Part shown: positions 24,903 through 35,475 of the stretch, piece after piece
Position numbering within the stretch: position 1 is the stretch's first letter
Layout: each line of letters opens with the position of its first letter
DNA from: a virus
Taxonomy: Duplodnaviria; Caudoviricetes
Reading direction: 5' to 3' (one strand)
IMG/VR virus record: IMGVR_UViG_3300020045_001508
Location: 1-37,130 of that record
Length of the DNA stretch: 37,130 nucleotides
The notes under the pieces: model-generated
Seen by the model: the letters and a program-made list of their open reading frames with translations, nothing else
Databases searched by the model: none
What the model was told of the DNA's origin: nothing
Translations under genes and position numbers: made by a program

Positions 24903-25382
24903 ATGACTAAAGCTATTATAACTCAAGAAGAATTAAAATCACAACTACATTACGACCAAAATACTGGTATATTTACTTGGAAAGAAAAAAAGCAAGGAAG
25001 AACCGCTAATTTAAGCATAACTCCTAAGAGATATTTAAGAATTAAAGTGTTAAATACTGTATATTTAGCTCACAGACTAGCTTGGCTTTATGTATATGGT
25101 GAATTCCCGAAAATCTATATAGACCATATAAATAGAAACCCATCAGATAATAGAATATCTAATTTGAGAGAAACTACTGCAATGCAAAATTCTCAAAACA
25201 TGACTAAAAGCAACAAGCCATTGAATAAGGTAGGTGTTCATTCTTTAAGAAATGGAGGATATAGTTCATCAATCAAAGTAAATAGTAAAACCAAATGGTT
25301 AGGAACTTTTAAAACTGAGGAAGAAGCGCATCAAGCATACTTAATTGCAAAAAGAGAGTTACATGCGTATTGTACTATTTAG
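24903..25382 (+). CDS. HNH homing endonuclease with C-terminal AP2-like domain
   Basis: AHRLAWLYVYG, IDHINRNPSDNRISNLR, WLGTFKTEEEA. Confidence 0.9.
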   Translation: MTKAIITQEELKSQLHYDQNTGIFTWKEKKQGRTANLSITPKRYLRIKVLNTVYLAHRLAWLYVYGEFPKIYIDHINRNPSDNRISNLRETTAMQNSQNMTKSNKPLNKVGVHSLRNGGYSSSIKVNSKTKWLGTFKTEEEAHQAYLIAKRELHAYCTI

Positions 25383-26075: not shown

Positions 26076-26579
26076 TTACTTATAACTTGATGGTTCTTTA
26101 TAAAATTCTCCATGAACTAATTTAGCCCATTGATGATAAGCATCACTTGCATCTTCTGCAGTGTCAAAAAGACCTAAGTGTTTTTGTTTTCCATTTAACC
26201 TAAAATAAGATTGCCATTTACATTTATCTTTATTCCATGTAACACATCGAAATCCACTAGTGTTGTTAATGTGAACACTCCTGTTTCTCATGTTTTCTGT
26301 CCATGTCGCTTCTCGCAAATTAACAATACGATTATCATTGCGAATGCCATTAACATGGTCAATAAACTCTTTTGGCCATGTTCCATATACATAAAGCCAT
26401 GCTAGTCGGTGAGATTTGTAAATCTTGCCATTTATGCCTATTACTATGTATCCTTTTTTATCAAGTGAACCAGCAACATCGCCAACTTTAATGCGTTTAC
26501 TTGTAGAATAAATCCTAGTAAAAACACCAGTATCATGGTCATAGTGCAATAATTCTTTTAATCTTTCTTGTGTAATCAT
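26076..26579 (-). CDS. HNH homing endonuclease with AP2 domain
   Basis: MITQERLKELLHYD, SHRLAWLY, IDHVNGIRNDNRIVNLR, HLGLFDTAEDA. Confidence 0.92.
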   Translation of the reverse strand: MITQERLKELLHYDHDTGVFTRIYSTSKRIKVGDVAGSLDKKGYIVIGINGKIYKSHRLAWLYVYGTWPKEFIDHVNGIRNDNRIVNLREATWTENMRNRSVHINNTSGFRCVTWNKDKCKWQSYFRLNGKQKHLGLFDTAEDASDAYHQWAKLVHGEFYKEPSSYK

Positions 26580-29585: not shown

Positions 29586-29660
29586 TGGTGCGCCTTCTGG
29601 AATCGAACCCTGTCCTGACGGTTATGAGCCGACTGCTCTTACCAAATGAGCTAAAGGCGC
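29586..29660 (-). tRNA. tRNA with CAU anticodon, Ile2-like, with an imperfect T-stem
   Basis: GCGCCTT/AAGGCGC acceptor stem plus ACCA, D-arm GCTC/GAGC, anticodon loop CTCATAA, TTCGATT loop; C4:G69 and C5:G68 as in Ile2. Confidence 0.75.
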
Positions 29661-30332: not shown

Positions 30333-30354
30333 GTAAAACTCCTTGTTAGTTAAT

Positions 30355-30391
30355 GTTTAATAATATTAAATCAATTTATTGCAAATGTAAA
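30355..30391 (-). promoter_or_regulatory. Leftward sigma70-type promoter with palindrome over -10
   Basis: TTTACA-17-TAATAT; near-copy of 33330-33366. Confidence 0.65.
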
Positions 30392-30400
30392 CAATTATTT

Positions 30401-30646
30401 TCAATAAAAACAATATTCACCAAATTCAAATATTATTTTATACGCTCTTAATTGTTTTTCACAAGTAACATAAATATCATTTTGTAAAACTTGGGCAATC
30501 CATATTGGTTTTACACATTGCGCATCAATCATTAACACATATCTATTTTTATTTGTATGAAACTCATATTTTTTATTTTGGCGATATGTAAAAATCCAAT
30601 CTTTTTTGCCTAATCTTTTTACTGTTGCAATCACAATATTCTCCAT
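30401..30646 (-). CDS. Hypothetical protein
   Basis: Likely start MENIVIAT; very AT-rich. Confidence 0.5.
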   Translation of the reverse strand: MENIVIATVKRLGKKDWIFTYRQNKKYEFHTNKNRYVLMIDAQCVKPIWIAQVLQNDIYVTCEKQLRAYKIIFEFGEYCFY

Positions 30647-31038: not shown

Positions 31039-31093
31039 CGTTTGCGTTGTTGATGTAGTTATAATATCACAATAAAAACAAAAGTAAACACTT
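31039..31093 (-). promoter_or_regulatory. Leftward promoter cassette sharing 28 bp with 36744-36771
   Basis: aagtgTTTACT-16-TATTAT (extended TG) followed by aactacatcaacaacgcaaacg. Confidence 0.7.
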
Positions 31094-31107
31094 TTCTGCA
31101 AAATAAT

Positions 31108-31290
31108 TTAAATATTTTCTTTTAATTTAAATTTAAGCAACTCAAGCTTAGACGTTGGAATATCTCTTGATGACGCACAGCGCCAAATCCTAACGGTCAT
31201 TTTTGAAACATTTAAAAGATTTGCCACGTTCCATGCTGTGATATTGTATTTTTCCATTAGGGTTAAAAGTTCTTGTCGATTAGTTTTCAT
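31108..31290 (-). CDS. Small HTH DNA-binding protein
   Basis: TAWNVANLLNVSKMTVRIWR...IP. Confidence 0.75.
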   Translation of the reverse strand: MKTNRQELLTLMEKYNITAWNVANLLNVSKMTVRIWRCASSRDIPTSKLELLKFKLKENI

Positions 31291-32758: not shown

Positions 32759-33307
32759 TTATCCTAAAATTGACTCTAAAACTGTTTTATCTTGCTCAGG
32801 TGTTAAATCAAAGTTTTCTGCTAATTGCTCAATCGTATATTCTTTAGCTTTAATTTTTACAATTGCAGCTTTCAATCTTTCATCTGTAATCTTTTGCTTT
32901 TCTTTAGGCTTGATGCTTAACTTAACATTTTGATGCTCATCTGTATCGGCATCTTTTGTGTCATCAATAGCAAATAAACCGTTCAAAGCATATTTTCGAG
33001 CGTATGATGAGGCCGTGCCAGTAATTTGGCTTGCGTCCATTCCCTTTTTATTTTCTTCTTCACGAGCAAAAGCTGTAGATGAAGCGATGATTTTTTCATC
33101 TGAATAAACAATCACAGTAGCTTTAACATAAACCCTATCAAGAACTGCTACAACTTCGTCAAACATATTCAAATAGTAATTGTATTTCATAAGCACTGGC
33201 TTAACAGCTTCTACAATATCTTCACATGAACGATATTTGTATTTTCCAAAAGAATTAAACTGCCCTTTAGGGGCTTTAAGCTCAGCTTGAATTTTTTGCA
33301 TACTCAT
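32759..33307 (-). CDS. erf: ERF-family single-strand annealing recombinase
   Basis: LKAPKGQFNSFGKYKYRSCEDI, QITGTASSYARKYALNGLFAIDDTKDAD. Confidence 0.92.
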   Translation of the reverse strand: MSMQKIQAELKAPKGQFNSFGKYKYRSCEDIVEAVKPVLMKYNYYLNMFDEVVAVLDRVYVKATVIVYSDEKIIASSTAFAREEENKKGMDASQITGTASSYARKYALNGLFAIDDTKDADTDEHQNVKLSIKPKEKQKITDERLKAAIVKIKAKEYTIEQLAENFDLTPEQDKTVLESILG

Positions 33308-33329
33308 TTTGCTTCCTTTCTTTGTTAAA

Positions 33330-33366
33330 GTTTAACAATATTAAACCATTTATTTTTAATTGTAAA
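33330..33366 (-). promoter_or_regulatory. Main leftward promoter with palindromic putative operator
   Basis: TTTACA-17-TAATAT; GTTTAA-N5-TTAAAC palindrome at 33330-33346. Confidence 0.65.
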
Positions 33367-33431
33367 CATTTATTTTTGATTTATCTGAAATATTTTTTAA
33401 TTTTATATGTTGTTTTAGTAACATAGTGGTG

Positions 33432-33561
33432 TATAATTATTTTTAGTGACGTTAGTAATAGTGTGAGTCAGACACTTATATTGCTAACCTCATTGAGGCT
33501 AAGCCACGTTTTTTCGATACTGACTCTATCGGGATACGTGGCTTTTTTATGGAGAAAACAA
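33432..33561 (+). promoter_or_regulatory. Rightward -10 box and structured kissing-loop leader of the rep gene
   Basis: TATAAT at 33432-37; hairpins 33451-88 and 33501-44 with complementary loops; T-run follows the second hairpin. Confidence 0.65.
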
Positions 33562-34308
33562 ATGGCGGAAAGAAGAATGTTTGCCAAATCAATTATTGAT
33601 AGTGATGCATTTTTAGATATGCCACTATCAACTCAAGCATTATATTTTCATCTTTCTATGAGAGCTGATGACGAAGGATTTATAAATAATGCAAAAAAAA
33701 TACAAAGAATGATTGGTTCAAATGATGATGATTTAAAAGTTTTAGGTGCTAAAAAGTTTATTATTCCATTTGAAACTGGCGTCGTTGTAATTAAGCATTG
33801 GAAAATTCACAATTATATTCGTGGCGATAGAATTCAATTAACAAACTACAAAGATGAGAAAAGTAAACTAGATATTAAAGAAAATGGCGCATATACCGTC
33901 ATGTCTGTCACTTGTCAGTCAGATGTCAGTCAAATGTCAGCACAGGATAGTATAGGTAAGGATAGTATAGGTAAGGATAGTATAGATATATATAAGGAAA
34001 AAAACGTTCCTTATGATGAGATTATCAATTTATTTTCTGTAACTTTACCAATGTTATCAAAACCATCTAAGTTATCTGAAAGTAGAAAGAGACTTATTAA
34101 AGCAAGGTGGTTTGAAGATGTTAAGCATCAAAGTTTGCAATTTTGGTCAAGTTTATTCTTATACATAGCCGAATCTGATTTTTTAACAGGTCGTTTTTCT
34201 AAATGGCAATGTGATTTTGATTGGATTTTAAAAGCAGATAATTTTTTAAAGATTACTGAAGGAAAATATATAAACCGCACTAATATTGATGAAGGAGCGC
34301 CGTTTTGA
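33562..34308 (+). CDS. Replication initiator (replisome organizer)
   Basis: MAERRMFAKSIIDSDAFLDMPLSTQALYFHL N-domain; DFDWIL..NF.KI.EGKY C-domain; internal iterons; GGAG RBS. Confidence 0.88.
   Translation: MAERRMFAKSIIDSDAFLDMPLSTQALYFHLSMRADDEGFINNAKKIQRMIGSNDDDLKVLGAKKFIIPFETGVVVIKHWKIHNYIRGDRIQLTNYKDEKSKLDIKENGAYTVMSVTCQSDVSQMSAQDSIGKDSIGKDSIDIYKEKNVPYDEIINLFSVTLPMLSKPSKLSESRKRLIKARWFEDVKHQSLQFWSSLFLYIAESDFLTGRFSKWQCDFDWILKADNFLKITEGKYINRTNIDEGAPF
33901..33985. repeat. Putative replication origin iterons
   Basis: Four imperfect 11-mers (atgtcagtcaa-like, 33901-33944), then about 2.8 copies of aggatagtataggta (33944-33985). Confidence 0.8.
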
Positions 34309-34814: not shown

Positions 34815-35294
34815 ATGCTTACACAAGCAGAATTAAAATCATTGCTACATTACAATCAAGAAACAGGAATTTTTACTTGGCTAAAACATAATTCAGGAGT
34901 TTCAATTTTAAAAGCTGGTACAAATAAAGGTAATGGGTATATACAAATTTCTTTAAAAAGAAAAAGATATTTAGCCCACAGATTAGCATGGCTTTATGTT
35001 TATGGAGAATGGCCTAAACAACAAATAGACCATATTAACGGTATTAGAGATGACAATAGGATAGTTAATTTAAGAGACGTTTCTAGGTCTAAAAATCTCC
35101 TTAATCAAAATCACAGTAATATAAATAAAAGAAATAAAAGCGGCGTAGTAGGTGTTTCATATTTTCCAAGAGACAATAATTGGGTTGCACAATTTATGGT
35201 AAATGGTGTTACAAAGTATTTAGGAAGATATGCAACGGTAGAAGAAGCAAAAAAAGTTCTTTTTGATGCAAAAGAGGCGCTAAATGCAGACTGA
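34815..35294 (+). CDS. HNH homing endonuclease with AP2-like domain
   Basis: AHRLAWLYVYG, IDHINGIRDDNRIVNLR, YLGRYATVEEA. Confidence 0.92.
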   Translation: MLTQAELKSLLHYNQETGIFTWLKHNSGVSILKAGTNKGNGYIQISLKRKRYLAHRLAWLYVYGEWPKQQIDHINGIRDDNRIVNLRDVSRSKNLLNQNHSNINKRNKSGVVGVSYFPRDNNWVAQFMVNGVTKYLGRYATVEEAKKVLFDAKEALNAD

Positions 35295-35475
35295 CTTCAA
35301 ACAACTATTAATTGACTTAAACAAAGTTTATAAATCTTACCCAAGGTTATCTAAAGTTTTAAACGTACCTTTAGGCACTATGAAAAAAATTTTGTACATG
35401 GGAACAAAAGAGATTTATTATTCAACTGCAATGAAAATTATTAATTTGCACAAAAGGCACTTTGATGAAAAATAA
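35284..35475 (+). CDS. Small HTH-like protein
   Basis: SYPRLSKVLNVPLGTMKKI. Confidence 0.55.
   Translation: MQTDFKQLLIDLNKVYKSYPRLSKVLNVPLGTMKKILYMGTKEIYYSTAMKIINLHKRHFDEK

Follow-up and report, generated by a model that had tools for sequence, protein, structure and literature searches.

The replication initiator gene rep of the phage analysed here is preceded by an RNA leader of ~105 nt (33445-33548), which lies between a TATAAT box and the rep ATG and whose two hairpins carry complementary loops. The window, i.e. the whole stretch of DNA that was analysed, is the complete phage record of 37,130 bases, with terminal repeats present. At the level of sequence, comparison with related leaders establishes the two hairpins, a covarying loop match, a U-run, a location at the operon start, and the swapping of entire leaders for other regulatory cassettes. 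The reading we prefer, to which we assign a probability of about 0.4, is that the leader would be a self-contained attenuator in which a loop-loop kiss competes with a terminator and the terminated RNA feeds back on the replication operon.

Anatomy of the leader in the early region

The leader sits in a 254-bp gap between erf (33307, minus strand) and rep. The leftward operon beside this gap contains erf, an exonuclease gene, and ssb, and the rightward operon contains rep as its first gene, then an unknown gene and the HNH, NinB, and NinG genes. Relatives of rep are annotated as replisome organizer or replication initiation protein. The features of the region are as follows.

32759..33366, minus strand: divergent promoter for leftward transcription (-35 at 33366), and erf, which heads the recombination operon (predicted)
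33410..33437, plus strand: sigma-70 promoter of the replication operon (predicted from sequence, score 9)
33445..33494, plus strand: hairpin 1, a 14-bp bulged upper stem on a 5-bp base (AGTGA/TCATT), 19 pairs (by folding)
33465..33471, plus strand: loop 1, GAGUCAG (unpaired probability 0.89)
33488..33498, plus strand: small hairpin CCTC-ATT-GAGG, an alternative pairing exclusive with the base of hairpin 1
33501..33548, plus strand: hairpin 3, terminator-shaped, with an 8-bp upper stem, an internal loop, a 9-bp lower stem, and six U (about -24 kcal/mol)
33520..33526, plus strand: loop 2, CUGACUC, the exact complement of loop 1 (by sequence)
33551..33554, plus strand: ribosome-binding site GGAG, outside the stem (leader-pairing probability 0.01)
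33562..34308, plus strand: rep, 248 aa, replisome-organiser or DnaD-like replication initiator (phrog_5708, E 6e-75)

The coordinates that the sequence-only reading had given for the TATAAT box, hairpins, loops, T-run, GGAG, and ATG all matched. The stem arms of hairpin 1 span 33451-64/33472-88, the predicted transcript start is A33445, and AGTG at the base of this hairpin was invariant in 9/9 aligned A1 leaders. The loop 1 7-mer occurs as a single plus-strand copy in the whole genome, where the leader itself is the sole matching partner for the leader loop and no second target was found. The loop-loop duplex of the window was calculated at -9.2 kcal/mol, with no extension into the flanks. The small hairpin, which had been described as part of the leader, was present as sequence but absent from the minimum-energy fold; forcing it costs 4.1 kcal/mol, and the best fold pairs its 5′ strand with AGTGA (33445-49), at the predicted 5′ end. 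Small-hairpin equivalents with other letters were found in 4/4 A1 relatives tested, at 4.5-7.8 kcal/mol above the minimum.

Hairpin 3 (arms 33501-19/33527-44, six T at 33543-48) had been taken for an intrinsic terminator. Its shape and U-run agree with this, and the best fold without the terminator was 14.7 kcal/mol worse in the window leader; however, a terminator scanner found none, hairpin 3 being absent from its list. We read this miss as a consequence of the internal loop that breaks the stem. The label "terminator" therefore rests on the shape and on the U-run in relatives. The rep ATG is at 33562, and an in-frame GTG at 33463 was set aside as not conserved.

The replication-operon promoter has a perfect -10 box (TATAAT, 33432-37) and a weak -35 box (TTGTTT, 33410-15; 3/6), and it was absent from the list of a promoter scanner; relatives carry TTGACA-17-TAt/aaT boxes at the equivalent place. 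The earlier statement that this interval contains no cI or cro holds for the 254-bp gap, which none would fit, while two small HTH genes lie elsewhere in the genome, away from the gap, at 31111-31290 (minus strand; phrog_14341, E 1.6e-10) and 35284-35475 (plus strand; a weak HTH, below the cut-off). The two proteins could be repressors. As separate observations, the left operon has three similar leftward promoter blocks (GTTTAC...TATT/AAT; 31040-31110, 30340-30410, and 33330-33400, minus strand) and a tRNA-Met(CAT) gene (29586-29660, minus strand) with ~150 nt of non-coding sequence before it. Three HNH endonuclease genes of one family (phrog_99) were found at 24903-25382 (plus), 26076-26579 (minus), and 34815-35294 (plus).

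The fold exceeded chance expectation. The leader region had a folding z of -3.3, with 0/200 shuffles equally stable, and among 3000 dinucleotide shuffles of 33445-33550, none folded as well and none placed two hairpin loops that pair over at least 6 bases. The exact reverse complementarity noted for the 7-nt loops was confirmed. A permissive search for complementary 7-nt loops on short stems returned other AT-rich matches in the window and 0-2 per shuffled genome; because this search is less selective, the case rests on stem strength and covariation.

Covarying loops in related leaders

Leaders of relatives were collected by a rep protein scan (80 loci) and by pattern scans (78, 37, and 4 loci) in which a T-run had to precede the ribosome-binding site, so the set is enriched for terminators. 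The collection comprised 113 distinct leaders in 84 clusters. After three cloverleaf clusters were set aside, 23 clusters with a single-loop terminator-like hairpin were left, and in this T-run-enriched set a loop match of 6-7 bp was present in 16/23 and absent in 7. Thirteen of the matching clusters were detected automatically and three by eye (L177, L182, and L193). From these 16 clusters, a set of 20 leaders was hand-picked by eye for the loop match. These 20 hand-picked leaders had 20 different loop pairs, and only 2/380 non-cognate loop combinations among them reached 6 bp. Other structured, terminator-ending leaders that belong to neither class stand upstream of rep in L084, L133, L169, L188, and L192.

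In an alignment of the window with its eight nearest leaders, 4/7 loop pairs and 3/5 pairs of the inner stem of hairpin 1 changed on both sides, counts that refer to related sequences and not to independent events. The covariation score of this alignment, in which L047 with its 6-nt loop was misaligned, was reached by 0/500 shuffles. No loop position was invariant, the commonest base holding in at most 12/16 seven-letter loops.

An erf-based scan yielded a second leader family (family F), unrelated to the first but built alike, present at 46/80 loci, with 23 distinct leaders, of which 22 were aligned. Family F leaders precede other rep types. They (L210-L274, e.g. L216:4048-4147) have no ribosome-binding site and several different first genes. 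Compensatory changes were again seen, in 5/7 loop pairs against 5/19 stem pairs, and loop pairing was kept in 153/154 cells with no G-U. The one mismatched kiss (L217, 1/22 leaders) is possibly that of a recombinant. Pairwise identity was 0.60 in the loops, 0.88 in the stems, and 0.99 in the linker, which is 17 nt long and nearly invariant, and six loop codes occurred among phages whose Erf proteins are at least 93% identical. Loops diverged faster than stems (p = 0.013, in a test that counts related sequences and lower-bound changes).

Judged on these comparisons of sequence, the leader is a real, selected RNA element. A chance structure, or an inverted repeat acting as DNA (an operator, or a likeness to the repeats inside rep), would draw on GTGAGTCAGA, which is one base away from being identical to a repeat within rep. 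In L004 this repeat is also present although the loop is different, the other three leaders tested had no match, and the G-U-rich stems, the 0/3000 shuffles, and the compensatory changes also speak against this reading; as covariation already contradicts it, we consider it extremely improbable. The likeness of loop 1 to the origin repeats was set aside as coincidental. The repeats themselves lie at 33905-33990 within rep, with short direct repeats TGTCAGTCA at 33913 and 33924 followed by GGATAGTATAG repeats, and are likely a replication origin.

Where rep is preceded by other, inserted genes (L016, L017, and in family F), the leader keeps its place at the start of the operon, and it would therefore act on transcription of the operon and not on translation of rep. 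A forward promoter score of at least 10 was found in 11/20 leaders. Pairing of the ribosome-binding site exceeded 0.3 in 3/20, and the rep frame was open through the leader in 3/20, so that there is no conserved in-frame leader peptide. No base-paired antiterminator was found within 13 kcal/mol in 20/20 leaders, and no second downstream target for the loop within 300 nt (0/20).

These features bear on the analogy, drawn in the sequence-only reading, to loop-loop control of rep in IncI/IncB plasmids. As in pT181/pIP501 and IncI/IncB, going by the portion of PMC5415839 used here, an RNA leader stands before a replication initiator and loop-loop recognition is involved, and the place before rep together with the loop variation recalls incompatibility determinants. 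An antisense RNA from a convergent promoter could thus bind loop 1 and either trigger termination (pT181/pIP501) or block an activator pseudoknot (IncI/IncB), and a U-rich run does follow the hairpin 1 complement in family F. In the window, however, this complement is followed by A, not U; the best antisense promoter scores averaged 7.9 against a background of 8.07 over the 20 leaders (weak or non-sigma-70 promoters escape such scoring); and the plus strand folded better than its complement in 20/20. The plasmid analogy fits poorly, since antisense promoters were at background, an in-frame leader peptide was open in 3/20, and the ribosome-binding site was mostly unpaired; in contrast to the plasmid systems, no base-paired antiterminator, conserved in-frame leader peptide, or sequestered ribosome-binding site was found in the leader, and antisense promoters, scored by consensus, stayed at background. 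We give a countertranscript little credence.

Closer copies of the leader were also sought. An exact-pattern scan of viral contigs for the loop pair of the window gave 0 matches and no close leader copy, and, in a search for cultured carriers, blastn of the window leader gave 4 records with a match limited to the U-run, ribosome-binding site, and rep start, and blastn of the family F leader gave 0 records. In most of 7 tblastn matches examined, rep was an internal gene of an operon; upstream regions were folded for 3, and none showed a two-hairpin leader. A GTDB pattern scan returned 4 loci, one of them with a two-hairpin leader (L278).

Proposed mechanism and competing readings

In the self-contained attenuator that we prefer, pairing of loop 1 with loop 2 while the RNA is being made would impede the closing of the terminator. 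Terminated RNA, which is short, would then build up, compete for loop 1, and turn the replication operon down. The parts of this proposal differ in strength. The element very probably sets read-through into the replication operon. That kissing favours read-through is somewhat more probable than the reverse, because the terminator folds unaided and no base-paired rival was found. We suggest tentatively that the terminated RNA, by way of its free loop 2, acts in trans, which would give Cro-like negative feedback with exclusion of same-loop phages as a by-product; for efficient action in trans, a contact of 7 bp is short.

Geometry bears on this step. By a rough estimate for the window, the stacked helix measures 115 Å against a linker of 53 Å, so that the kiss and the complete terminator would be exclusive and loop 2 would be left free in the short RNA. 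By the same crude steric estimate, 6 of 23 leaders were clearly exclusive, 8 were borderline, and 9 permitted kiss and terminator together, including all 3 family F leaders tested. This coexistence in 9/23 would suit a reading in which the ~105-nt terminated RNA is itself the product that matters (a compact small RNA, a decoy, or a dimer), with the kiss having a structural role or stabilising termination and rep being expressed by leak. Such an RNA would have its own promoter and a strong terminator, and the nearly invariant 17-nt linker of family F could bind a protein. The wider set, however, has no conserved letters, the element heads an essential operon, and no second target was found in the genome or up to 300 nt downstream (0/20), and we regard this reading as rather improbable.

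A second feature was found in 11/20 leaders, in which hairpin 1 is refolded by a near-copy of the 3′ arm located distally, so that loop 1 becomes buried and loop 2 remains open. The distal refolding helix was more stable than nearly all spacer shuffles, and 3/15 of its pairs changed on both sides. Either refolding or steric exclusion was found in 15/20 leaders, and the refolding switch was absent in 9/20. In the window leader, loop 1 is unburied in the full-length fold (unpaired probability 0.88 to 0.89), and the argument from refolding therefore does not cover this leader. In the 11 switching leaders, refolding energy tracked kiss energy (Spearman 0.76, p 0.006, with kinship and GC uncontrolled), as might be expected of an attenuator that works in cis only, where the competition between kiss and terminator closure sets a leak that is fixed or depends on elongation speed, with no action in trans. 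Such a device accounts for the covariation, the position, and the missing rival helix in fewer steps; it leaves unexplained why loop letters turn over faster than stems and why the leader is exchanged with Cro-like genes and CI-like cloverleaves. We hold it to be a lesser possibility, worth about one chance in a few.

Precedent for the kiss comes from guanidine-IV riboswitches (GGAM-1 or mepA motif), where, according to excerpts of PMC11611296 and PMC7736828, kissing of an upstream loop with a terminator loop causes read-through, proposedly via linker strain. Like our leader, these riboswitches pair an upstream loop with the loop of an intrinsic terminator and have no overlapping base-paired antiterminator, steric exclusion being proposed, as far as the same excerpts describe (PMC7736828, PMC11611296). 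Perfect Watson-Crick kisses generally form without ligand (PMC10907184, in part), which implies that something must switch the kiss off. In principle, the kiss could be controlled by a protein or small molecule, either as in a riboswitch or through a phage or host RNA-binding factor; the topology is the same as in guanidine-IV, and the two small HTH genes are present in the genome. Yet the guanidine-IV loop bases are 97%-conserved and required, going by the part of PMC7736828 used, whereas no loop position was invariant here (at most 12/16) and the kiss has no bulge. With no fixed loop letters and perfect pairing, a competing RNA is the more likely modulator than a ligand, and control by a protein or ligand seems improbable. 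The leader further differs from guanidine-IV in that it lacks conserved ligand-pocket bases, its loops vary freely, it has no Rfam match, and it is followed by rep or by genes inserted before rep and not by guanidine exporters of the sugE/mepA type.

Known RNAs, cassette exchange, and carrier phages

The earlier remark that the leader was not recognised as a named family agrees with Rfam. At the gathering cut-off, Rfam 15 matched only tRNA in the whole window; at E<=10, the best relevant match of the leader was freshwater-2, at 17.5 of 49.9 bits and mostly at the U-run and ribosome-binding-site end; and 58 scans of related loci yielded int-alpA on L042, a different leader, alone. A phi29-type pRNA was rejected, there being no Rfam match and the phage having a large-terminase gene.

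P4 CI and P1 C4 are cloverleaf RNAs with two pairing segments. The suggested analogy to them fits in logic but not in anatomy. As in P4 CI (seqA/seqB/seqC) and P1/P7 C4, an upstream target (seqA or a1b1) is complementary to a downstream part of the leader, and the proposed logic is the same, a leader-derived RNA that would prematurely terminate transcription of replication genes. In contrast, our leader consists of two plain hairpins with an unbranched hairpin 3, a single 7-bp contact, and no cloverleaf; a downstream second target (seqC or a2b2) was found within 300 nt in 0/20 leaders and nowhere in the window genome; and carriers of the leader mostly lack integrase. P4 CI, an RNA that comes from the leader of the replication operon, terminates transcription of that same operon (PMC4825925, in part), and C4 RNA, Rfam RF01695, is listed with its consensus in PMC2864571. 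By membership tests, the leader is outside the guanidine-IV, CI/C4, and plasmid antisense classes, and it likely works, by analogy, like a blend of guanidine-IV and CI/C4.

No published description of this leader element was found, mainly in open-access literature and in the portion of the Weinberg 2017 main text covered. Fremin et al. 2023 (PMC10690425) report, in the sections considered, structured candidates from freshwater and gut phages that lie no more than 25 nt before rep-type genes. Their candidates DNAVirus_187, 1270, 4674, 4859, and 4653 are all marked "no terminator" and are 49-124 nt long (same sections of PMC10690425), and, compared by description only, they differ from our leader in that no loop-loop pairing or mechanism is given for them there. 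Parts of two-hairpin leaders may thus already be catalogued without a mechanism (Fremin 2023, Weinberg 2017).

The slot before rep also holds other cassettes. L019 and L021 are ~91% identical over the region and have promoter and rep start in common; the stretch in which they differ is exactly the one from the -10 box to the U-run, with a two-hairpin leader in one and a cloverleaf terminator in the other. The upstream loop of this cloverleaf leader matches its own junction. Cloverleaf terminator leaders, which we take to resemble P4 CI and P1 C4, stand before the same rep family at the following loci.

L019:1880-1985, L028, L038, L069, L087, L100, L102, L127
L132, L153, L160, L179, L186; also L029, L157, L158

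At least 13 of the cloverleaf leaders keep the loop-junction match, with six different loop sequences (TTGGCGG, TTGCAGG, TTGGAAG, TTGGAGG, TTGACGG, and TTCGCGG) and a second short match. Those of the cloverleaf leaders that were scanned against Rfam gave no match. At L042:1903-1984, an int-alpA RNA (RF02996, 44 bits) lies directly upstream of a rep homologue, and a Cro-like gene occupies the leader slot in L001, L018, and L057. The occurrence of a two-hairpin leader, a cloverleaf, an int-alpA RNA, and a Cro-like gene in one slot points, by arrangement of the sequences, to RNA cassettes that would do a repressor's job.

Among 26 records with a two-hairpin leader, none had a tyrosine integrase and one had a serine recombinase. 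An integrase was present in 1/17 carriers that are at least 90% complete against 15/20 controls, which had the same rep without a structured leader and were picked by eye, so that lineage confounds this contrast. A CI-type peptidase was found in 0/26 carriers against 8/33 controls, and ParA in 0/17 near-complete carriers. Without integrase, CI, or ParA, the carriers look virulent, and lasting immunity has no obvious home in them. HTH_3 genes occurred in 5/26 carriers; with the two small HTH genes of the window, these leave room for protein repressors.

It is conceivable, if rather doubtful, that the element replaces Cro in many phages as a module that needs no protein. In that case, a leader of ~100 nt would keep count of phage transcription by means of its terminated transcript, which would shut off the replication operon through a loop code of 7 letters. 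A lambda-like early region combined with the lack of integrase and CI is common among small uncultured phages. If the Cro-substitute reading is true, integrase-less phages would time replication and exclude competitors of the same code by RNA alone, and the natural loop series would be ready orthogonal transcription switches. Kissing-loop antitermination is known from one riboswitch class, and the leader would extend it to a phage switch that needs no ligand.
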